Shown: positions 1,452-39,021 of the stretch, in pieces | Layout: every line of letters starts with the position of its first letter | Position numbering within the stretch: position 1 is the first letter of the stretch | Position numbers and translations under genes: made by a program | Notes under the pieces: generated by a model | Database searches by the model: none | The model's input: the letters and a program-made list of their open reading frames with translations, nothing else | What the model was told of the DNA's origin: nothing | NCBI GenBank assembly: GCA_040876885.1 | Contig: JBBDOU010000005.1 | Coordinates: forward strand, 38,620 to 93,203 | Reading direction: 5' to 3' | DNA length: 54,584 nucleotides | From: Minisyncoccota bacterium | GTDB taxonomy: Bacteria > Patescibacteriota > Minisyncoccia > Phycocordibacterales > JABMNX01

Positions 1452-2186
1452 ATGTATGGAACAGGACTCGTTACTTTTTTGGTTGTTGTTATTGGAGTGC
1501 CCGCGTTTCTCCTTTGGTATGAGAAGCCAACTTGTTTTGATGGAGTAAAAAACCAAGGAGAAGATAGTGTGGACCGGGGAGGACCCTGTATGCTTCTCGA
1601 CGCATCCGGAGTACAGAATTTCGTCGTGCTTTGGGCTCGGGCATTTGAGGTTGTTCCTGGTGTCTATAATGCCGTTGCACAGGTGGATAACCCTAACTTT
1701 TCAGCGGGAGTGGTTGATGTCCCGTATTCTTTTAAGCTCTTTGATGGGAATAATATATTGATTGCAGAAAGGAAAGGAAGAACATTTATTTCTCCAAATA
1801 AGGTAAATGCTATTTTTGAAGGAGGAATTGAGACAGGAGAGCGGGTTCCTACACGTACTTTTTTTGAATTTCTAGAACCACCGCAATGGGAAAGAGTTAC
1901 ACACCCTGTTGAGGGAATACAGGTTAAAAGCCGAGTGTTGAGCGACGCAGAAACACAGCCTCGCTTAACTGCGGTTATTGAGAATACCTCTTTTAAAGAT
2001 GCCTATGAGGTCGAAGTCGTTGCGATAATTTTTAATGCACGTGATGTTGCTGTCGCTTCGTCTAAAACAGTTATAGAGATACTTCCGCAACAATCATCAA
2101 AAGGAGTCACGTTTACATGGCCGAAACCCTTCTTGAGCGCTTCTGCTCGCATAGAGGTTCTTCCGCAAGTAGTCTTTGGAGAGTAG
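1452..2186 (+). CDS. Hypothetical membrane-anchored protein (N-terminal TM, then CFDGVKNQGE..DRGGPC motif)
   Basis: Trimmed from ORF 1425..2186 to the ATG at 1452, 6 nt after AGGAGG (1440-1445). Hydrophobic N-terminus GLVTFLVVVIGVPAFLLW. No family recognised. Confidence 0.6.
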   Translation: MYGTGLVTFLVVVIGVPAFLLWYEKPTCFDGVKNQGEDSVDRGGPCMLLDASGVQNFVVLWARAFEVVPGVYNAVAQVDNPNFSAGVVDVPYSFKLFDGNNILIAERKGRTFISPNKVNAIFEGGIETGERVPTRTFFEFLEPPQWERVTHPVEGIQVKSRVLSDAETQPRLTAVIENTSFKDAYEVEVVAIIFNARDVAVASSKTVIEILPQQSSKGVTFTWPKPFLSASARIEVLPQVVFGE

Positions 2187-4752: not shown

Positions 4753-6120
4753 ATGACTATAGCAAGCAAACAAGAATCCCTCGTTCTTCTTATTGGAGAC
4801 ATTTCCCTTTTTTTAGTAGCCCTCTGGGTGACTTTGTTTGTGCGATACGTAGAGGTTCCTAGTACCACACTCCTCTATAACCACCTTATTCCATTTTCGT
4901 TTCTTTTTATTGTGTGGATTGGGGTGTTCTTTATCTCAGGGTTATATGATAAGCACACAATATTACTACGGAGTCGTCTTTCTTCAACGATTTTAAATGC
5001 CCAGGCGGTGAATATTGTGCTTGCAGCGCTTTTCTTTTTCTTTGCTCCTTGGTTTTCTATTGCCCCTAAAACAAATCTTGTCCTGTATTTAATTATCTCA
5101 TCTCTCCTTGTCCTCGTGTGGCGTACGTCAATTTTTCCGCGAACGGGCTTTAGAAAGAAACAGAAAGCAGTCCTTATTGGATATCGTGGTGAGGTAGGGG
5201 AGTTGGTACGCGAGGTAAATGTAAATCCCCGGTATAATCTTGAGTTTACGCTTGTCGTTGAGGTTGATGAGGGCATTGCTGTGGAAGCAGTTAAGGAAGA
5301 AGTAGTGGCGGTTATAAATTCAGGAGGCGCGTGGGTTATCGTTGCAGACGTTAAGAGCCGGAAGATACAAGGCTTACTCACTGCGCTGTATAATCTTACG
5401 TTGTCCGAAGTACCAATTGCTTTTCTTGATATACACAAAGTATACGAAGACATCTTCGACAGGATTCCCATATCAGCGCTAAAAGAAAACTGGATACTCG
5501 AGAATATTTCAACAAGCCCAAAGATTATATACGACACGATAAAACGCCTTGCAGACGTGGTAGGAGGAATAGTGCTTGGGGTTGTTTCGCTTATTTTCTA
5601 CCCGTTCGTGTACGTAGCTATTAAAATTGAAGACGGCGGAAGTGTGTTTATTAGTCAAAGACGTGTTGGAAAAAATAACAAGTTGTTTTATTCGTATAAG
5701 TTTAGGAGCATGAATAGAAACGAGGATGGTGTATGGGTGGGGGAGACCGATAATAAGATAACTCGAGTTGGTAGCTTTATGCGCAAAACACGTATTGATG
5801 AGTTGCCACAGTTGTGGAATATCGTCCGAGGAGACCTTTCTTTTGTGGGTCCACGACCTGACATGTCAGGGCTTAACAAAAGGCTTTCTGAAGAAATTGA
5901 ACATTACGACGTACGCAGTGTGATAAAACCGGGACTGACGGGGTGGGCACAAATTAAACAAGATTATGGAAATAAGAACCAAATAAGCCCGCAAGGAGTT
6001 ATAGATACACAAGAGCGACTTACGTATGATGTATACTATGTAAAAAATAGATCATTGTTACTTGATATACGAATTACATTTCGTACGATAAAGACAGTGC
6101 TCTCAAAGTTTGGAAGTTAA
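4753..6120 (+). CDS. Polyprenyl-phosphate sugar-phosphate transferase (WbaP/EpsB-like bacterial sugar transferase), priming enzyme
   Basis: N-terminal TM bundle plus a C-terminal catalytic domain with RVGKNNKLFYSYKFRSM, DELPQLWNIVRGDLSFVGPRP and KPGLTGWAQ. Confidence 0.85.
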   Translation: MTIASKQESLVLLIGDISLFLVALWVTLFVRYVEVPSTTLLYNHLIPFSFLFIVWIGVFFISGLYDKHTILLRSRLSSTILNAQAVNIVLAALFFFFAPWFSIAPKTNLVLYLIISSLLVLVWRTSIFPRTGFRKKQKAVLIGYRGEVGELVREVNVNPRYNLEFTLVVEVDEGIAVEAVKEEVVAVINSGGAWVIVADVKSRKIQGLLTALYNLTLSEVPIAFLDIHKVYEDIFDRIPISALKENWILENISTSPKIIYDTIKRLADVVGGIVLGVVSLIFYPFVYVAIKIEDGGSVFISQRRVGKNNKLFYSYKFRSMNRNEDGVWVGETDNKITRVGSFMRKTRIDELPQLWNIVRGDLSFVGPRPDMSGLNKRLSEEIEHYDVRSVIKPGLTGWAQIKQDYGNKNQISPQGVIDTQERLTYDVYYVKNRSLLLDIRITFRTIKTVLSKFGS

Positions 6121-6125
6121 TATAT

Positions 6126-7190
6126 ATGAACAAAAAAACACTTTTTATAACAGGAGGCGCGGGGTATGTTGGCGCGATGCTCTGCGAGCAGTTTTTACAG
6201 CGCGATGATGTCGAGAAAATTATTGCACTTGATAAAGAACCGCAACCAGAAATTCTCAAAGGAGATGCACGTCTTATTTGGATTGATGCGCATACGTGCG
6301 ACGACACATGGCAGGATGAGGTGGCACGACACAACCCTACCGTTGTGGTGCACACTGCATGGCAGATTCGTGAAATGTATGGAAAAAAGGAACTCCAGTG
6401 GAAGTGGAACGTGGAAGGGTCTGACATGGTTTTTGATTTTGCATTTTCAACTCCTTCAGTTGAGCGGTTAATTTATTTTTCAACAGTCTCTTCTTATGGT
6501 GCATCGAAGCATAATACCTTTGCGCATTTGTTTAAAGAAGAAGAACCTTTTGTTGAGGACCAGTACCGTTATGGCGTTGAGAAAAAAGAAGTAGAGGAAC
6601 ATCTGCGTGAGAAATTTGAACACAATAAAGAACGTGCACCTCAAATCTTTATCGTGCGTCCCGCAGCGATTACTGGCCCACGGGGTAGGTTTATGCGTAT
6701 TCGATTTGGACTCCAAGCGGCACTTTCAGGACAACTTACAAAGTCACCAATACATCGACTTATTTCACTTTTGGTTTCATTTGTTCCCGCAACGAAAGGA
6801 TGGGCACGGCAGTTTATTCATGAAGACGATGTTGCAGATATCGTGACACTTTTTGCATTCAATGACCTTGAAGGGAAGTACGAAGTCTTTAATATATGCC
6901 CCCCAGGGGACGCTGTGTATTCAAAGGACATGGCACGTGCTGTAGGGAAGAGAGTACTTCCCGTGTATCCGTGGATGGTGCGTCTCGCTTTCTTTTTCTT
7001 TTGGCATGCGACCCGTGGGCGCGTACCAACTTCATTTGGTGGGTGGAAATTTTATTCATACCCAATTCTTGTAGACGGAAGTCGATTGACCAAGCAATAT
7101 GGCTTTACCTACCGATGTGGTTCGCAAGATGCGTTTACCTCAACCAAAGGACGCTACGAGCAATACGTTCCAGAGGAATCACGGCAATGA
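6126..7190 (+). CDS. NAD-dependent epimerase/dehydratase (SDR family)
   Basis: N-terminal Rossmann motif TLFITGGAGYVGAML. Extended SDR length with a YxxxK-like YRYGVEKK. Confidence 0.75.
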   Translation: MNKKTLFITGGAGYVGAMLCEQFLQRDDVEKIIALDKEPQPEILKGDARLIWIDAHTCDDTWQDEVARHNPTVVVHTAWQIREMYGKKELQWKWNVEGSDMVFDFAFSTPSVERLIYFSTVSSYGASKHNTFAHLFKEEEPFVEDQYRYGVEKKEVEEHLREKFEHNKERAPQIFIVRPAAITGPRGRFMRIRFGLQAALSGQLTKSPIHRLISLLVSFVPATKGWARQFIHEDDVADIVTLFAFNDLEGKYEVFNICPPGDAVYSKDMARAVGKRVLPVYPWMVRLAFFFFWHATRGRVPTSFGGWKFYSYPILVDGSRLTKQYGFTYRCGSQDAFTSTKGRYEQYVPEESRQ

Positions 7191-7239: not shown

Positions 7240-8568
7240 ATGTTAAAGGTACGCATAATAGCGTTCATAATTCTTATTGCTGGCTTAGGAGTAGGCTATT
7301 TTGTTTTTGACACTGAACAGAAGAATGACGCTCATTTTGCGTTTAAATTTGGACTTGATTTAGCGGGTGGAACTCATTTGGTCTATCGGGCAGACACCAC
7401 CAGCGTGAGTGCGGGGGACGTGAACAGTTCTATGGCGGCGCTTCGTGATGTTATCGAACGACGCGTAAACCTCTTTGGGGTCTCTGAACCAATCGTACAA
7501 ACAGAAAAGAGTGGTATTTTTTCTGGTGTAGAAGAGGACAGACTTATTGTAGAACTTCCCGGTGTCACAAACACTGAAGAAGCCATTGCGCTTATCGGAA
7601 AGACACCAACGCTTGAATTTAAATTATTTAAAACCGAAGCGGGGGAGGTTGATGAGAACGGAAACCTTAACCTCAATGCTTCTTACGTAGACACGGGGCT
7701 CACTGGGGCACTCCTCAAGAAGGCGACACTACAGTTTGGTGGTTCAAATTCAGGGCTTTCAAATGAGGCTGTTGTGGTTGTTGATTTTAATAAAGAAGGT
7801 TCAGCGCTTTTTGCACAGATTACCCGAGAGCATGTGGGAGAACCTATGGGGATTTTTCTCGACGGGTCACTTATCTCAGCACCAACAATAAACGAAGAGA
7901 TACCAGATGGTTCCGCAGTGATTTCTGGAAACTTTACTCCAGAGGAAGCGCGCAACCTTGTTAAAGACTTAAACTTTGGAGCGCTTCCATTACCTATTGA
8001 ACTCTTAAGTACGCAAACAATCGGTTCTTCATTAGGTTCTACTGCGCTTGCGCACGGCGTGGTTGCTGGACTTATCGGACTCGCATTGGTTGCACTTTTT
8101 TTAATCTTTTGGTATCGAGTTCCGGGAATCGTTGCGGTGCTTTCGTTAAGTATCTATGTTGCTATAATACTTGCGCTCTTTAAGCTTATTCCCGTGACAC
8201 TCACCGCAGCAGGAATCGCTGGGTTCATTCTTTCTATTGGTTTGGCGGTTGATGCAAACGTGCTTATTTTTGAACGTATGAAGGAAGAACTCAAGGAAGG
8301 GAAGAATACTAAAGATGCTGTTGAAGAAGGATTTAGGCGAGCATGGCTCTCAATCCGTGATGGGAACGTATCAAGTCTTATTACTGCGGTGATTCTCTTT
8401 TGGTTTGGAACGTCGTTAGTGCAAGGGTTTGCGCTTACATTTGGTATTGGTGTATTAGTAAGTATGCTTACCGCGGTGGTAATAACACGAACATTCATGC
8501 GTGCTTTAGGGGAGTATTCAAATCGTCGACTTACTCGATTATTCTTTGGTAGTGGAGGGTATTTTTAA
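7240..8568 (+). CDS. secD: Protein translocase subunit SecD
   Basis: N-terminal TM, periplasmic-type domain (LGLDLAGGTHLVY, IVELPG), C-terminal 5-TM bundle with LAVDANVLIFERMKEE. Followed by secF. Confidence 0.9.
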   Translation: MLKVRIIAFIILIAGLGVGYFVFDTEQKNDAHFAFKFGLDLAGGTHLVYRADTTSVSAGDVNSSMAALRDVIERRVNLFGVSEPIVQTEKSGIFSGVEEDRLIVELPGVTNTEEAIALIGKTPTLEFKLFKTEAGEVDENGNLNLNASYVDTGLTGALLKKATLQFGGSNSGLSNEAVVVVDFNKEGSALFAQITREHVGEPMGIFLDGSLISAPTINEEIPDGSAVISGNFTPEEARNLVKDLNFGALPLPIELLSTQTIGSSLGSTALAHGVVAGLIGLALVALFLIFWYRVPGIVAVLSLSIYVAIILALFKLIPVTLTAAGIAGFILSIGLAVDANVLIFERMKEELKEGKNTKDAVEEGFRRAWLSIRDGNVSSLITAVILFWFGTSLVQGFALTFGIGVLVSMLTAVVITRTFMRALGEYSNRRLTRLFFGSGGYF

Positions 8569-9556: not shown

Positions 9557-9627
9557 AAGGAGATACTTTAGTTTAGTTCGGTGTGCTAGCATAAAGCACT
9601 TCGTGCTTTATGCTACACCGTGCTACC

Positions 9628-9650
9628 TTTTGGCGGTCCGACCGCCAAAA
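9628..9650. repeat. REP-like palindrome, family 1 (TTTGGCGG-TCCGA-CCGCCAAA), copy 1
   Basis: TTTTGGCGG TCCGA CCGCCAAAA. Same core as copies at 20271, 20510 and 20807. Preceded by an unrelated 13-bp-stem hairpin at 9583-9618. Confidence 0.85.
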
Positions 9651-10031: not shown

Positions 10032-10062
10032 TTAGGATGTGTCGTAAGGCACGTTAATATTT

Positions 10063-11512
<1,450 letters not shown>

Positions 11513-11647
11513 AATTGGAAATGTTATTTCGCACCCCGTGAAATAACTGAATTGGTCGGATTTATATGCCTCGTACGAGCATATAAACAAGCAATAGTGT
11601 TGAATCTTCTCTCTACACTCGCGCACCAGGATATCGCGTACTTGGAT

Positions 11648-18377: not shown

Positions 18378-18455
18378 ATTTTTCATATATTTTTCTACAA
18401 AGTGTTGTGTATGTGTATTTTACTGGGTCTACGCATGCGGTATACTTATAAGCAT

Positions 18456-20273
18456 ATGAATCTTGAGAAAATAACATACCTCGCTGCCACAGACTCTCGT
18501 GGTAAAGAAAAAGCATTTGGTATAAAAGCCATAGACAGAGCGAAGCATATGTATATCATCGGTAAAACTGGTATGGGGAAGTCAGTGCTTCTTGAGAATA
18601 TGGCGATTCAAGATATTCAAAATGGAGAAGGGCTTGCGTTCATTGATCCCCACGGCTCTACTGCAGAAAAGCTTCTTGACTATGTGCCAGAGCACCGCAT
18701 GGAAGATGTTGTGTACTTTGCTCCTTTTGATATGGACAACCCTGTTGCGTTTAATGTAATGGAAGATGTTGGGTACGACAAACGCCACCTTGTTGTGTCC
18801 GGCTTGATGAGCGCCTTTAAAAAAATATGGGTTGATGCGTGGAGTGCCCGTATGGAATATATCTTAACCAACACGTTGCTGGCGCTCCTTGAGTACCCTG
18901 ACGCGACATTGCTTGATATAAACCAGATGTTTATTAACAAAGCGTTTCGAAAAAAAGTTGTTGAGTATGTAACTGACCCTATTGTAAAATCGTTTTGGAA
19001 TGAGGAGTTTGCGGGATATTCAGACAGGTATGCACAAGAGGCAACCCCAGCTATTCAAAACAAGGTGGGGCAATTTACCTCGAACCCACTTATTCGAAAC
19101 ATTGTTGGACAGGCGCAATCAACATTTGATATGCGTGACATTATGGATAAGAAGAAAATCTTTATTGCAAACTTATCGAAGGGTCAAATGGGAGAAACAA
19201 ACGCAGACTTAATCGGAAGTATGCTTACCACAAAGATCTATCTTTCGGCGATGAGTCGTGCTGATGAGCAAGCGGTGGTCCAAGCGAAACTTCCTCCATT
19301 TTATTTCTATGTAGACGAATTCCAATCTATCGCAAATGACTCATTTGCCGATATTCTTTCTGAAGCTCGAAAATATAAACTCGCCCTTGTCATTGCGCAT
19401 CAATTTATCGCACAAATGGAGGACAATGTTCGTGATGCGGTGTTTGGAAACGCGGGAACCATTATTGCATTTAGGGTCGGTCCTTTTGATGCAGAGGTTC
19501 TTGAGACAGTGTTTCAGCCAAAGTTCCTTGCAGAAGACATTGTTAATCTTGGGAAGTACCAGACATATATGACGCTGATGATAGACGGTGCGGGCTCGAC
19601 CCCGTTCTCTGCGTCAACACTGCCTCCTATAGAAGAGCCAACTATCAGTTTCAAGGAGCAGATACTTCGTATATCAAAGGAGACGTATGGTCGCCCTCGA
19701 GAACAGATAGAGGAGGCTTTAAGGAAACGAAATGAAGCGCTTTCTCCTCAGCAGGCACAGCCTAAAAAACAAGAATATGCACAAGGAAACAAGGGCGGTA
19801 GTAGTGGCTTGACCAAGAGTTTTTCTCAAAGCCAAACTAAAGACTGTACACAGCCCTTGGGGAGCAAGAAAGATACAGGAACAGTAGCCCCCGCTGAAAA
19901 AAAACACGGAAACCCATCGAAAGATGTTCAGAATCAGAACAATAATTCAAGTAACGTTGTTCGCAAAGAAAAGCAAACAGTCTCGCTTAATACGTTGAAG
20001 TTTAAACAGCAGGCAACCAGTAAAGGGCCATCTGCTGCTCAATTATCTGCACTTCGGGACGCATTGAAGTCTGTGCAAAAAAATACGACACCTCCAGCGT
20101 CACAGAAAAAAAATAAGTCAGATGATATTGGAATAAAAAAAGAAAAACATTCAGAAAATGTTCCTCAAAGAGAAGGAACATCACAAGGGGCTTCAGGAGA
20201 AGAGAAAAAACCTCACCAAGAAAAAGAGGTTCCTCGTGAGGTGCTTGAAAATATCCTCAAAAAAGATGAGTAA
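18456..20273 (+). CDS. P-loop NTPase of the TraG/TraD/VirD4 (type IV coupling protein-like) group, with a ~170-aa low-complexity K/Q/S-rich tail
   Basis: Trimmed from ORF 18402..20273. Walker A GKTGMGKS. Walker B-like FYFYVDEFQS. ARKYKLALVIAHQFIAQM. Tail ...QQAQPKKQEYAQGNKGGSSG...KKNKSDDIGIKKEKH. Confidence 0.55.
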   Translation: MNLEKITYLAATDSRGKEKAFGIKAIDRAKHMYIIGKTGMGKSVLLENMAIQDIQNGEGLAFIDPHGSTAEKLLDYVPEHRMEDVVYFAPFDMDNPVAFNVMEDVGYDKRHLVVSGLMSAFKKIWVDAWSARMEYILTNTLLALLEYPDATLLDINQMFINKAFRKKVVEYVTDPIVKSFWNEEFAGYSDRYAQEATPAIQNKVGQFTSNPLIRNIVGQAQSTFDMRDIMDKKKIFIANLSKGQMGETNADLIGSMLTTKIYLSAMSRADEQAVVQAKLPPFYFYVDEFQSIANDSFADILSEARKYKLALVIAHQFIAQMEDNVRDAVFGNAGTIIAFRVGPFDAEVLETVFQPKFLAEDIVNLGKYQTYMTLMIDGAGSTPFSASTLPPIEEPTISFKEQILRISKETYGRPREQIEEALRKRNEALSPQQAQPKKQEYAQGNKGGSSGLTKSFSQSQTKDCTQPLGSKKDTGTVAPAEKKHGNPSKDVQNQNNNSSNVVRKEKQTVSLNTLKFKQQATSKGPSAAQLSALRDALKSVQKNTTPPASQKKNKSDDIGIKKEKHSENVPQREGTSQGASGEEKKPHQEKEVPREVLENILKKDE

Positions 20274-20315
20274 CTTAACCACTTTGGCGGTCCGACCGCC
20301 AAAGTGGTTAAGTTA
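20271..20315. repeat. REP-like palindrome family 1, copy 2 (45-nt perfect hairpin)
   Basis: TAACTTAACCACTTTGGCGG-TCCGA-CCGCCAAAGTGGTTAAGTTA, a 20-bp perfect stem. The left arm starts with the TAA stop of the ATPase gene. It ends 15 bp before the RAYT start. Confidence 0.9.
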
Positions 20316-20329
20316 TAAGTTATCTATAT

Positions 20330-21022
20330 ATGAGAAAAGTCCCTTTTGTTAACAATGAGTACTATCATATTTTTAACCGCGGTGTAGATAAGCGGACGGT
20401 TTTTGAAGATAAGTTTGATATAGAACGGTTTTTTGAAAGTATGAAAATTTTCAATCGTGTTAAACCAGTTGGTAGTATCCTTGAATATTCAGTCAAGCGC
20501 AGAAAAGATGGTAATTTTGGCGGTCGGACCGCCAAAATTACCACAAAAACCGAGGAGCGGTTAGTCGACTTTGTTAGTTACTGCCTAAATCCAAACCATT
20601 TTCACTTTATTCTTAGGCAAAGAAGCGATGGTGGCATTAGTGAGTTTATGAAACGATTAGGTGGTGGCTATACATGGTATTTTAATAATAAACATAGCAG
20701 AAATGGTGCGTTGTTTCAGGGAAAATTTAAATCTGTCCATATCAACTCAAATGAGTACTTACTCCACTTAAGTGCATATGTGAACCTTAATAATCGTGTA
20801 CATAACTTTGGCGGTCCGACCGCCAAAATAATTAGATCTAGCTGGGATGAGTATATAGGAGTAGATAATAAAGAGAGTAAAAAAGTCTACTGCGATAAGG
20901 ATATTATTTTAGGACAATTTAAAAATAAAAAAGAATATAAAAAATTTGCAGAAAATTCCTTAAGAGACATATTAAAAAACAAAGAAAAAGCCGAAGAGCT
21001 TGAGATTTTATTACTTGAATAA
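20330..21022 (+). CDS. REP-associated tyrosine transposase (RAYT) / IS200-like Y1 HUH transposase
   Basis: YYHIFNRG first strand. HUH motif NHFHFIL. GALFQGKFKSVHINSNEYLLHLSAYVNLNN with the catalytic-Tyr helix. ..SSWDEY. Flanked and penetrated by family-1 palindromes. Confidence 0.75.
   Translation: MRKVPFVNNEYYHIFNRGVDKRTVFEDKFDIERFFESMKIFNRVKPVGSILEYSVKRRKDGNFGGRTAKITTKTEERLVDFVSYCLNPNHFHFILRQRSDGGISEFMKRLGGGYTWYFNNKHSRNGALFQGKFKSVHINSNEYLLHLSAYVNLNNRVHNFGGPTAKIIRSSWDEYIGVDNKESKKVYCDKDIILGQFKNKKEYKKFAENSLRDILKNKEKAEELEILLLE
20510..20542. repeat. REP-like palindrome family 1, copy 3 (inside the RAYT CDS, centre inverted)
   Basis: GGTAATTTTGGCGG-TCGGA-CCGCCAAAATTACC, a 14-bp perfect stem. 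Translated in frame as GNFGGRTAKIT. Confidence 0.9.
20807..20827. repeat. REP-like palindrome family 1, copy 4 (inside the RAYT CDS)
   Basis: TTTGGCGG-TCCGA-CCGCCAAA, translated in frame as NFGGPTAKI. Confidence 0.9.
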
Positions 21023-21062
21023 GATTTTTTTACAAGAGTTAATTACTGATACAATAGTAGTA

Positions 21063-22466
21063 ATGAAGTTTCGTTTAGGTATTTTTATATTCGTTATGTT
21101 AGTTTCTCCATTGCCTGCTAAGGCAGAAGTTGTTTTGAGTGAGATTATGTATGACCTTGAGGGGAGTGATAGTAAGCGAGAATGGGTTGAAGTTTTTAAT
21201 CCGGACGGGTCTCCTGTTTCTCTTTCTGGTTGGCGATTATTTGAGAGTGACGCTAACCATAGACTTACGCTTATTACAGGAGACGAAACACTCTCTTCTG
21301 GGGCGTATGCAGTTATAGCAAATGACGGAGATGCATTTCTTTTAGATTGGCCTGATTTTTCTGGAACACTTTTTGATAGCTCATTTTCATTGAGTAATAC
21401 TGGTGAGACCCTTATCATTAGAGACAGTGAGCTTGTTGATATACATGCAGTTACGTACTCCTCAGAGTGGGGAGCTCAAGGCGATGGTAAGACGCTTTAC
21501 TATACGGGCTCTCAGTGGGAGACAGGGATACCTACTCCGGGGAAAGGGCCATATACCTCTGAAGACCCTCCGCAAGAACAACCTCAGGAGTCTCAAGGAG
21601 AAAACACAGCACCAGTTGTTACCAGTCACCCTGTAGAACCACAGATATTTGCACGGATTGTCGGCGTTAATACAAAAGAGAGGGTTGTAACTGTTGGGGC
21701 CGATACGGTGTTTACAGGTAGAGTCGTCGGCCTTTCTGGAGACCTTGTATCAGGCGCGCGGTATGTATGGAGCTTTGGTGACGGAGGGTCTCGTGAAGGA
21801 GAATCTGTTTTGTATCACTACCGATATCCAGGAACCTACCAAGTGGTACTCACCACGTCGTCTGGGAAATATACAGCGAGTGACAGGTTAAAGGTGCTCG
21901 CGCTCCCTTCAGAAGTTTCGGTACGGAGCGCATCACAAGAGTTTATAGAAATAAAAAATGATTCAGATAGAGAGATAGATCTTTCGTGGTGGATATTTTT
22001 AGTTGGGCGGGAGTCGTTTACTGTACCAGAGCATACAATGATACTACCCAAGAGTTCTGTGAGGTTCTCTACTGAAATAACGAGGCTTACACCGAAAGGT
22101 ATTGATGAAGTTGTGTTGCTGTATCCAAACATGATGCCGGTTATACAAGGAAGTGTGGTCGAGGACATTTCAGAAGAACAGTCGATTGTGTCTTTTGGAG
22201 GAAGTTCTTTAGTTGGGAGCGCAGTTGAGACTCCTTATACTGAAACCAGTGTATCGAATACAGCAAGCGCTGACGGTGACCCTACAAGCAGCCCGGCCAT
22301 CGCCGATGAAGATTTTCAGTATAAGAGTCAACTCGCAACGGTAAATACAGACACCGGGCATGGTGGGGTGCTTGTAGGGGCACTCATCGTCCTCTTGGCG
22401 CTGGGGTCAGGAAGTGTCTTATATTTACGGAAACAAGCTCGTGAAGGTATTACGCTTATTGATTAA
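21063..22466 (+). CDS. Secreted, C-terminally anchored lamin-tail-domain (LTD) / PKD-domain surface protein
   Basis: Trimmed from ORF 21000..22466 to the ATG before the signal peptide MKFRLGIFIFVMLVSPLPAKA. LTD signature VVLSEIMYDLEGSDSKREWVEVFNPDG..LSGWRL. PKD-like YVWSFGDGG..YHYRYPGTYQVVL. Second LTD-like EFIEIKNDSDREIDLSWW. C-terminal TM VLVGALIVLLALGSGSVLYL. Confidence 0.75.
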   Translation: MKFRLGIFIFVMLVSPLPAKAEVVLSEIMYDLEGSDSKREWVEVFNPDGSPVSLSGWRLFESDANHRLTLITGDETLSSGAYAVIANDGDAFLLDWPDFSGTLFDSSFSLSNTGETLIIRDSELVDIHAVTYSSEWGAQGDGKTLYYTGSQWETGIPTPGKGPYTSEDPPQEQPQESQGENTAPVVTSHPVEPQIFARIVGVNTKERVVTVGADTVFTGRVVGLSGDLVSGARYVWSFGDGGSREGESVLYHYRYPGTYQVVLTTSSGKYTASDRLKVLALPSEVSVRSASQEFIEIKNDSDREIDLSWWIFLVGRESFTVPEHTMILPKSSVRFSTEITRLTPKGIDEVVLLYPNMMPVIQGSVVEDISEEQSIVSFGGSSLVGSAVETPYTETSVSNTASADGDPTSSPAIADEDFQYKSQLATVNTDTGHGGVLVGALIVLLALGSGSVLYLRKQAREGITLID

Positions 22467-37257: not shown

Positions 37258-39021
37258 ATGAAAAGTGAAAACGCACTTGTTATTTTTGGTAAAGAGCTTC
37301 CTCCTCGACTGGCGCAGTTTAAAAGTGGTTCGACAGTTGTCTTTGCTTATAAGCAAATACGTAACGAGGTTGAAGACGCTGGTTTTAAGTGGAGTCCTCT
37401 TGAGGAGCTTGTTGACCCTGGAAATATTTATGAAGCGAGGAAGTTTGTTGAAGAGCTCTCTAGAGTATCTCTACCAGATGGTTCGCGTGTAACAAAGTCA
37501 GGAGTATATGAAGGGTATGAATTGTGGTGGGCACACTGTCAGAATTTATTTCTTTACTTCACGTTACCGCATACACAATATAAGAGACTTCTCGAATCCT
37601 TAAAGAAATACAACTCAATCTTCTTATACCAACCTCCGTACAAGAGTCTTTTTTTGTGCTATCTCCGTGCGTATGGAAAAGAGGTTTCAGTCCTTAGTGA
37701 GTCGTACCTAAGTGGTCAAAAGATCATCCCTCTTGGTGTTGTCGTGCAAATGTTTATCACATTTATAAGTATCCCGATATTAATAGTTCGTCGGTATCCC
37801 GTAATGATGTTTACCGGAGATAAATTTGAAAAGTCGAAAGACTACGATTTTAGAATGAGATTTCTCTATGAAGAGTTGAGGAGTAGGCAAATTCATTTTG
37901 TTGAATTCATACGAAGTCTAGAGCCGTGGCGTGTAATAATAGAACACGCTTTAAAAAGAAGACGCCCCATAATCTATTCTGAGGCTGTTACGTTCAGTGC
38001 CCGATTTATAAGTTTTGTAACTGGTGGCTCCCGTAGAGTGCGAAATAAGTTTATGTTCCCCAAGCCGCTAGAAGGTATGTCTTCTGAAGGTTACTTTAGA
38101 CTACTTGTCACAACACAATATCTACTAACGGTTGATGAAGATATATGGGCTATACGCATCATGAAACTGATTACACGCTTAATTGGTTTGAGGGCGTCTA
38201 TAGTAACTGCGACCATTGAACGTAATTTCCATAGTGTTTTGGCATGTAAATTAAATTCAATACCGGTGACCGGTATTTTGCATGGCGCAAATACCCATAA
38301 CTATAATGTCTATGATTTTATGCAGGGGTTTGATGGTGAAAAGAGACTGTCCGTTGATAAATACGGAGTGTGGAGTGAGTGGTGGAAAGCTTACTATGAA
38401 AAGGAAAGTGACGCCTACGGAAAAGAGCAACTCTTTGTTTCTGGTCCAATGAGACCACTTGAAGGTGTTGCCACTCATCAAGAAAGGGTGTCGGCAAATA
38501 ATAGTAAGAAGAAAGTACTCTTTGTTTCAGAAATAGTTGCTGTTCCAGCCGAGGTTATGCCATATCTAGAGGCGTTAACTAAAGTTGAGGATTTTGATGT
38601 GTATATAAAATTTAGATCTTATGGGGATAATTTTGAAGCATGGTTAAATAATAATCGACCTGACTTCCTTAATACATTTGATAAAAAGAAAATCCTAAAA
38701 GGAGACATGCATAAAGCAATAGAAATATGTGATGTGATAGTAGGTTCTCAGAGTACGGGCGTCATTGAAGCAACACTGCACTTGAAGCCGTTTGTCTTTT
38801 TTAGGACAAAAAAATGGGGCGATTATTTTAGTATGAAATCATTTGATTCCCAGTATAGTTTCTTTGCTGAGGATAGCAGTGAATTAGAGGATTGTATTAG
38901 AAAAAGTGGGACCATTCCAACTGATGTGCTGAAAGGTGTTCGAGATAAGTTTTTTGGTGACCCTCATAAAAATGGAAGCGCTTGGGTGATTGATCAGGTT
39001 GAGGATGTGTTGCAGAAATAG
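37258..39021 (+). CDS. Hypothetical protein (587 aa) closing the glycan operon; the C-terminal half may be GT-B/TagF-like
   Basis: Trimmed from ORF 37180 to the first ATG after the upstream stop. One central TM-like segment (IIPLGVVVQMFITFISIPILIV). C-terminal KKVLFVSEIVAVP...VIVGSQSTGVIEATLHLKPFVFF. No family recognised confidently. Confidence 0.5.
   Translation: MKSENALVIFGKELPPRLAQFKSGSTVVFAYKQIRNEVEDAGFKWSPLEELVDPGNIYEARKFVEELSRVSLPDGSRVTKSGVYEGYELWWAHCQNLFLYFTLPHTQYKRLLESLKKYNSIFLYQPPYKSLFLCYLRAYGKEVSVLSESYLSGQKIIPLGVVVQMFITFISIPILIVRRYPVMMFTGDKFEKSKDYDFRMRFLYEELRSRQIHFVEFIRSLEPWRVIIEHALKRRRPIIYSEAVTFSARFISFVTGGSRRVRNKFMFPKPLEGMSSEGYFRLLVTTQYLLTVDEDIWAIRIMKLITRLIGLRASIVTATIERNFHSVLACKLNSIPVTGILHGANTHNYNVYDFMQGFDGEKRLSVDKYGVWSEWWKAYYEKESDAYGKEQLFVSGPMRPLEGVATHQERVSANNSKKKVLFVSEIVAVPAEVMPYLEALTKVEDFDVYIKFRSYGDNFEAWLNNNRPDFLNTFDKKKILKGDMHKAIEICDVIVGSQSTGVIEATLHLKPFVFFRTKKWGDYFSMKSFDSQYSFFAEDSSELEDCIRKSGTIPTDVLKGVRDKFFGDPHKNGSAWVIDQVEDVLQK

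Follow-up and report, generated by a model that had tools for sequence, protein, structure and literature searches.

A 54.6-kb stretch of DNA from a Minisyncoccota bacterium (positions 38,620 to 93,203 of contig JBBDOU010000005.1), referred to here as the window, carries a gene for an enzyme resembling the transposases that are associated with repetitive extragenic palindromes (REPs), i.e., the REP-associated tyrosine transposases (RAYTs), together with a short palindrome that is found just upstream of this gene and, in frame, twice within it. The analysis of homologous loci presented below shows that the window gene is part of an extensive branch of the RAYT/TnpA-Y1 superfamily, spread across Patescibacteria, in which palindromes specific to each gene occupy fixed sites, two of them in frame within the coding sequence (CDS).

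The window contains four copies of the 21-nt core of the palindrome, TTTGGCGG-TCCGA/TCGGA-CCGCCAAA, at positions 9629–9649, 20283–20303, 20516–20536 and 20807–20827 in the numbering of the whole stretch. A looser pattern, GGCGGNNNNNCCGCC, returned the same four sites against 0.27 expected, and none of 100 shuffled sequences reached four, which confirmed that the palindrome is real and beyond chance expectation, and also that four copies of a GC-rich element exist, three of them on one gene, as stated in an initial annotation of this DNA. The upstream copy spans 20271–20315 in its extended form (core 20283–20303, loop CCG, stem of 21 bp, DNA fold of −24.3 kcal/mol, z −10.1) and is placed between the ATG and the end of the preceding gene, which has its stop codon at 20273. 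The first in-frame copy (site 1; 20509–20543, core 20516–20536, loop CGG, stem of 16 bp, DNA-fold z −8.4) lies 5′ of the codons for the HUH strand and is translated as G-N-F-G-G-R-T-A-K-I-T, and the second one (site 2; 20807–20827, loop CCG, stem of 9 bp, DNA-fold z −3.7) is translated as F-G-G-P-T-A-K, between the Tyr150 helix and the SSW motif. The starts at 20271 and 20510 given in the initial annotation refer to the longer palindromes (20271–20315 and 20509–20543), with the cores beginning at 20283 and 20516. The distance from the upstream copy to the ATG is 14 nt from the end of the extended form and 26 nt from the end of the 21-nt core.

Because their loops are flipped (CGG versus CCG), sites 1 and 2 (20516–20536 and 20807–20827) are exact reverse complements over 21 nt, and on the DNA they are direct and inverted repeats at once, 291 nt apart and in frame. 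The sole copy away from the RAYT-like gene in the window is intergenic (9628–9650, stem of 10 bp, DNA-fold z −4.1), 3′ of a secF-like open reading frame (ORF) and its terminator and approximately 430 nt upstream of the 16S rRNA gene. This arrangement recurs identically, base for base, in four independent assemblies of the same organism and is therefore no assembly artefact.

With regard to the gene itself (20330–21022, plus strand), the ORF, Pfam, an alignment of homologues, an AlphaFold2 model and Foldseek were consistent with an HUH/Y1 (RAYT-like) enzyme of 230 aa, and within this ORF the two internal copies are indeed read through as NFGGRTAKI (site 1) and NFGGPTAKI (site 2), as had been claimed. 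The protein matched the Pfam family PF01797 (Y1_Tnp) over residues 70–152 with 32.2 bits (cut-off 23, E 1.3e-7), and scored 25.1 bits against a cut-off of 80 with the NCBIfam RAYT equivalog NF047646 (REP_Tyr_transpos), which was thus not reached. In an alignment of 32 homologues, H90, H92 and Y150 were invariant; N89-H90-F-H92 constitutes the HUH motif (codons N89–H92 at 20594–20605 and the codon of the catalytic Tyr150 at 20777–20779, both on the plus strand), and the tyrosine motif reads Y150-V-N-L-N154 followed by N or D, the class-2 form Y---NP being absent from the alignment. In the AlphaFold2 model (predicted local distance difference test (pLDDT) 77.8, predicted template modelling score (pTM) 0.78), Y150 is within helix 141–152, residues 61–73, which comprise the site-1 peptide, are predicted to form a disordered loop (pLDDT < 50), and the site-2 peptide is in the segment that follows the Tyr150 helix, where model confidence is moderate.

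A profile search against PDB sequences yielded no significant match, and the informative search was the fold comparison alone. Here, the best Foldseek match in the PDB was 4er8_A, the Escherichia coli RAYT in complex with a REP hairpin (E 1.8e-5), followed by the TnpA proteins of IS608 and ISDra2, with a probability of 1.00 for 4er8_A, 2a6o, 2vjv and 2xqc. Judged by these profile, alignment and model data, the product is an HUH/Y1 enzyme of RAYT-like type, in line with its original assignment. A protein search recovered 4,588 relatives, nearly all of them unnamed or labelled ‘transposase’; those with a named source came from Patescibacteria, and the lengths of the best 120 of the 4,588 ranged from 204 to 253 aa. 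The segment around site 1, originally considered longer than in typical RAYTs, does show the extra length, but the alignment indicated that this is common to the whole family and not special to the window gene.

To describe the layout of the palindromes beyond the window, we fetched 79 genome loci and examined the DNA of 80 homologous genes from Patescibacteria, a hairpin being scored as present when its perfect stem comprised 7 bp or more. A genome-specific perfect hairpin with the consensus (C)CACTTGG-NNNN-loop-NNNN-CCAAGTG(G) was found at four fixed positions: upstream, at about −40 from the ATG (64 of 80 genes); at site 1, at about +175 (codons ~60–70; 48 of 80); at site 2, at about +450 (codons ~155–167; 41 of 80); and downstream, 10–20 nt after the stop codon (58 of 79). 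All four sites were occupied in 23 genes, and the window gene has the upstream copy, site 1 and site 2 and lacks the downstream copy. The gene is also carried by a complete Patescibacteria genome (CP011215.1), in which the palindrome is GACTGGGTCCGACCCAGTC. Paralogues with only ~35% identity were found to have unrelated hairpins of their own (e.g., ATGTCGGACAT-GTT-ATGTCCGACAT), both at the upstream site and at the in-frame site 1 in L005 (about 7265–7500) and L009 (about 6330–6590), and at the in-frame site alone in L055 (about 1540–1570, minus strand); the arrangement is therefore old. No conserved neighbours were detected among the genes flanking the 79 loci.

Cognate copies were concentrated at the genes, with 228 of them in ~72 kb of gene zones versus 40 in ~1.15 Mb of homologue flanks, which corresponds to a dispersed density of approximately one copy per 29 kb of flank. 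These dispersed copies were mostly intergenic; a few were located in long ORFs, several of them in the LGxxxxK frame. The base of the hairpin is CCAC...GTGG, and the consensus CCACTTGG...CCAAGTGG does not have the 5′ GT[AG]G guide that a canonical REP carries at the foot of its hairpin (PMC6006769). The proposal of a classical REP-flanked RAYT was therefore retained only in part: the cognate upstream palindrome resembles a REPtron, but an element so sparse outside its gene in the window and the flanks covered, and without this foot, does not look like a classical abundant REP. We also scanned metagenomes with the 19-mer TTGGCGGTCCGACCGCCAA. This yielded 106 hits, of which 20 were located at RAYT-like genes, 35 in intergenic DNA and 51 inside long ORFs; they do not amount to a clean census, an unrelated conserved peptide being among them. 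Many of the ORF matches encode a conserved (I/L/V)GGPTANMY on contigs of higher GC content (L090, L094, L099, L100, L116, L122, L129 and others), which looks like a coincidence of codon choice unrelated to RAYT-like genes.

Since most homologues of the 32-protein alignment show the peptide (L/F)GGxT(A/S/P)K at both sites, it could be argued that FGGxTAK is a motif with a function in the protein, where it is found twice, and that the palindromy of the DNA follows from the amino acids. Several observations contradict this. The two sites covary within a protein (LGGSTSK/LGGSTSK, FGDRVAE/FGDPVAE, LGDLVAK/FGDLVAK), the residues that pair are those with reverse-complement codons (F-K, L-K, G-A, G-S, G-P, G-T and D-V), and a wide range of residues occupies the paired positions (G/S/H/C/N/D/R with T/A/M/V/P), as reverse-complement codons demand. 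In 40 site-2 hairpins, a set preselected for perfect stems of at least 7 bp, both-side (compensatory) changes were present in 12 of the 13 stem pairs, a value matched by none of 500 shuffles. A resampling test free of such preselection made use of every [LF]G....K peptide in the 80 proteins (n = 109): all nine palindromic pairs were formed in 53 of them and eight of nine in a further 19, whereas synonymous resampling with the peptides held fixed gave nine of nine in none of 21,800 trials and eight of nine in 0.4%. The codons chosen oppose background usage, with CTT paired with AAG 65 times and TTT with AAA 11 times, while 73% of background lysine codons are AAA. Moreover, the same element is also found at non-coding positions, and distant paralogues have unrelated site-1 peptides. 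A functional FGGxTAK motif with palindromy as its by-product was ruled out by the synonymous-codon resampling, and we regard any reading of this kind as scarcely credible. The in-frame copies are DNA elements, encoded by covarying palindromic DNA in non-preferred synonymous codons, and the (L/F)GGxTAK peptide is their by-product, which bears out the initial annotation in this respect.

Copies at one gene also evolve in concert. The 8-nt arm was identical among the copies of a gene in 39 of the 63 genes with at least two copies, and the loops of copies at one gene were either the same or exactly flipped. Where the flanking loops were TAA or TGA, the coding copies had TTA or TCA, and no coding copy was seen in an orientation that reads TAA or TGA. 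It follows that the element arises in both orientations and that the ones creating stop codons are removed. Between genes, the arm was shared at protein identities of at least 79% and was often 1–2 nt apart at about 70–78%, and paralogues in one metagenome-assembled genome, which were 50–76% identical, had differing arms (e.g., TTGGCGGT in L007 versus TTGGGGGT in L008). The relative at L080, with a protein 76% identical to that of the window, has the same three 21-mers in synteny, with a nucleotide identity of 79% overall. Its upstream 21-mer shows a loop flipped with respect to the window, with TATAAT after it. Of the neighbouring genes, at least the downstream one is retained, and the alignment extends to the end of the upstream one.

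As an explanation for this anatomy, we put forward, tentatively and as the likeliest of those considered, although with slightly less than even odds, a cis-acting HUH/Y1 enzyme with its own palindromes at up to four sites, which would be homogenised, would serve autoregulation and would form breakpoints. The enzyme would recognise its own hairpin on single-stranded DNA, acting preferentially in cis, and a cut-and-rejoin or templated copy-replacement reaction would keep the copies at its own gene identical, so that hairpin and enzyme specificity would drift together. The same activity might occasionally seed dispersed copies. Copies embedded in the promoter and within the gene could allow the enzyme to limit its own expression, and deletions of gene modules could have their breakpoints at the copies. 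Since one or both of the intragenic copies have disappeared from many homologues that are otherwise intact, these copies would be modulatory rather than essential.

The same losses, some of which have left a peptide of the same length, can equally be read in favour of a serious rival, according to which the in-frame palindromes are pure passengers, i.e., insertions tolerated in two permissive surface segments or leftovers of cis activity, with no role. This is how Quentin, Siguier, Chandler and Fichant (2018, BMC Genomics 19:475; PMC6006769) interpreted the in-frame cases of TnpA-Y1 subclass 2.4, which constitute a published precedent. The disordered loop predicted at site 1 (pLDDT < 50) fits this view as well, and so do the mismatches in decaying copies, which resemble plain AT-biased point mutation. 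However, the positions are kept across proteins that are 50–60% identical and, for site 1, even in the ~35%-identical paralogues with unrelated hairpins; site-2 stems reach up to 18 bp past the shared core and covary there; and the identity to the flanking copies would fade without active homogenisation or selection. We therefore consider mere passengers to be possible, though somewhat doubtful.

With respect to the autoregulation envisaged for the cis-acting enzyme, a hexamer with at least five of six matches to TATAAT starts exactly 14 nt past the centre of the upstream hairpin in 17 of 63 cases; the corresponding count was about one both for the reverse strand and for every other hairpin set. 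When starts 12–17 nt past the centre are included, the hexamer accompanies 26 of 64 upstream hairpins, with TG at −15/−14 in 16 of these 26 and a distance of 6 nt from the ATG in 13. Approximately a third of the homologues show the upstream hairpin and then TGnTATAAT at a fixed distance, with the ATG 6 nt further on (e.g., L019 at 6747–6787, L030 at 1506–1546 and L036 at 5493–5533), and the upstream copy of L080 fits this geometry. Going by these sequence patterns, the upstream hairpin would be a promoter spacer, and the mRNA leaderless, in such homologues.

A different kind of control, independent of the HUH enzyme, would arise if the hairpins, or a 21-bp duplex between sites 1 and 2, governed translation or decay of the mRNA (e.g., through RNase III). 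Indeed, the minimum-energy RNA fold of the whole CDS pairs site 1 with site 2, exact complements in the window, and encloses 270 nt that code for the catalytic core; in addition, the downstream copy, 10–20 nt past the stop codon, is positioned like a 3′ stabiliser. Nevertheless, loops are shared as well as stems, copies are also present where they are untranscribed, in promoters and dispersed, and flipped loops between the sites of several genes alter the RNA loop. Wobble pairing in the sense RNA was not enriched in near-perfect coding copies either, with five G.U-type mismatches versus 14 non-pairing A.C/C.A ones, although these numbers are small. Taken together, mRNA structure appears improbable as the explanation of the copies.

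Two loci are informative with regard to deletions bounded by hairpins. In L174 (233–720), a RAYT-like gene lacks the N-terminal module and is broken precisely at the site-1 hairpin. In L004 (690–1940), conversely, the N-terminal module of a second RAYT-like gene stands alone (1716–1898, minus strand) and stops shortly past the site-1 hairpin that belongs to it, TGGACATC[CG]GATGTCCA. This hairpin is present in a third copy at about 737–757, beyond the intact gene.

A stronger version of the cis-acting enzyme, which we judge unlikely, is that a domesticated single-strand-DNA enzyme has in the four palindromes an inbuilt circuit for control and rearrangement, in which the gene product would bind or cut and rejoin the copies, and recombination between copies would switch the gene off. 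Binding or cut-rejoining of the promoter and in-frame copies by the product would bring about autoregulation and lock the specificities together, and recombination between copies would delete hairpin-bounded modules and silence the gene. A deletion between sites 1 and 2, given their distance of 291 nt, would preserve the frame and eliminate the catalytic core. If such a circuit held across Patescibacteria, it would represent a self-referential enzyme-substrate module not described for RAYTs.

The presence of hairpins at both ends of a ~0.7-kb unit also brings to mind an autonomous IS200-like insertion sequence, with the upstream and downstream hairpins as its left and right ends and transposition of a 0.75-kb unit. 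Occurrence in distant genomes without conserved synteny would be compatible with this, as would the intact unit of L004, which sits between pieces of another such gene. Yet copies of the IS200 subclass average 99.4% identity (Table 1 in PMC6006769), whereas the paralogues within a genome were 50–76% identical and had different hairpins; the most similar pair in one genome reached 76%, and near-identical copies of the IS200/IS605 type were not seen. Synteny is retained between the window and the 76%-identical L080, the tyrosine motif is YVNLN and not Y---Q, no tnpB-like gene was among the called neighbours, and the window gene has no downstream copy. We thus find an insertion sequence of this type highly improbable.

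Several points weigh against the cis-acting, self-homogenising enzyme that we favour. Site-1 and site-2 hairpins were missing from 32 and 39, respectively, of the 80 intact genes, and the in-frame copies are therefore dispensable. The covariation set had been preselected, as indicated above. A promoter scan of the window found no promoter overlapping the upstream copy, and the hairpin-TATAAT geometry of the homologues is absent there. The informative deletion derivatives are only two in number (L174 and L004b). Furthermore, cutting inside its own gene would be harmful to the enzyme unless it were prevented, and no feature that prevents it was identified. In short, all steps past the anatomy are what we infer from it.

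As for the surroundings of the gene, its upstream neighbour (18402–20273) encodes a TrwB/TraG-like coupling ATPase and its downstream neighbour (21000–22466) a protein with LTD and PKD domains. Immediately 5′ of the dispersed copy, the window contains an unrelated hairpin with a 13-bp stem (9587–9618; TAGCATAAAGCAC-TTC-GTGCTTTATGCTA). The rRNA genes of the window are split, with the 16S gene at 10056–11515 and the 3′ end of the 23S gene (1–500) and the 5S gene (823–929) separated from it by around 9 kb of protein-coding genes. An Rfam tRNA match of 129 nt (587–715), located between the 23S 3′ end and the 5S gene and without an ARAGORN call, could represent a tRNA that contains an insertion or an intron.

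Among domesticated transposases in co-evolution with a short DNA element of their own, pairs of RAYTs and REPs are the principal case. The family described here offers a compact natural data set in this regard, with hundreds of genes, the genome loci numbering at least 587, and up to four copies of a gene's own element at fixed places, two of them coding, and changes in the hairpin can therefore be read directly against changes in the protein. It also raises testable ideas on autoregulation, a promoter-embedded hairpin and hairpin-bounded deletions, and it does so in ultrasmall Patescibacteria, which have very small genomes in which repeats are otherwise rare.

Regarding known systems, an HUH enzyme with its DNA substrate embedded in its own CDS has a counterpart in the initiators encoded by gene A of phiX174 and repC of pT181, which have the nick site inside their own gene; these are, however, single replication origins of a phage and a plasmid, and not multiple palindromes in a chromosomal transposase-like gene. 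The palindromic elements of Rickettsia (RPEs; Ogata 2000) and the in-frame REPs listed in other genes by Di Nocera et al. (2013; PMC3733652) are likewise short palindromic repeats that are translated in frame into a short peptide, located where the protein tolerates it. In the Patescibacteria family, by contrast, the host gene is that of the element's own presumed enzyme, the positions are family-wide, and possible in-frame copies in other ORFs are few.

The classical REPtron, i.e., the E. coli TnpAREP/RAYT with its REPs and bacterial interspersed mosaic elements (BIMEs) (Nunvar 2010; Bertels & Rainey 2011; Ton-Hoang 2012, PMC3333891; Messing 2012, PMC3479197, PDB 4ER8), shares with the Patescibacteria family the HUH/Y1 fold, being its best structural match, as well as a low-copy gene, a genome-specific flanking hairpin and a separate hairpin family for each paralogue. 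It differs in its GTAG guide, which the Patescibacteria family does not have, in its class-2 tyrosine motif (Y---NP versus Y---N[ND]) and in the hundreds of dispersed copies per genome, versus the low density seen in our flanks. Judged by its motifs, the family looks closest to subclass 2.1/TIRYT (Quentin 2018; Di Nocera 2013), with which it has in common NH[YF]H, FQ in place of WQ, a Y[IV]xLN-type tyrosine motif, an SS C-terminal tail and a length of ~230–240 aa. No REP-like structures were found near the genes of subclass 2.1 (PMC6006769), whereas hairpins are dominant in the Patescibacteria family.

The initial annotation was not aware of any description of in-frame copies in RAYT genes, a claim of novelty that does not stand, since REPs in frame inside tnpAREP genes, unique to TnpA-Y1 subclass 2.4, were reported in 2018 (PMC6006769). 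In-frame REP copies inside RAYT genes are thus already known from another branch of the family, and the finding is therefore less surprising than that annotation held. A search of the literature joining Patescibacteria or candidate phyla radiation (CPR) names with RAYT-related terms retrieved no paper on RAYT-like genes of Patescibacteria. As in the window and its homologues, subclass 2.4 comprises RAYT-type genes flanked by cognate palindromes, with more copies in the CDS that keep the frame and fall in peripheral parts of the protein (PMC6006769). Subclass 2.4 REPs are, however, long or ‘double foot’, with a GT[AG]G foot, and their hosts are mainly Cyanobacteria and Bacteroidetes (PMC6006769), while the Patescibacteria family has a short perfect palindrome with a CCAC...GTGG base and a four-site layout conserved family-wide; in the window gene, site 1 corresponds to residues 62–70, before H90, and site 2 to residues 159–167, after Y150. 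Compared with this precedent, the lineage, the type of hairpin, the positions, the family-wide four-site layout and the link to the promoter are new.

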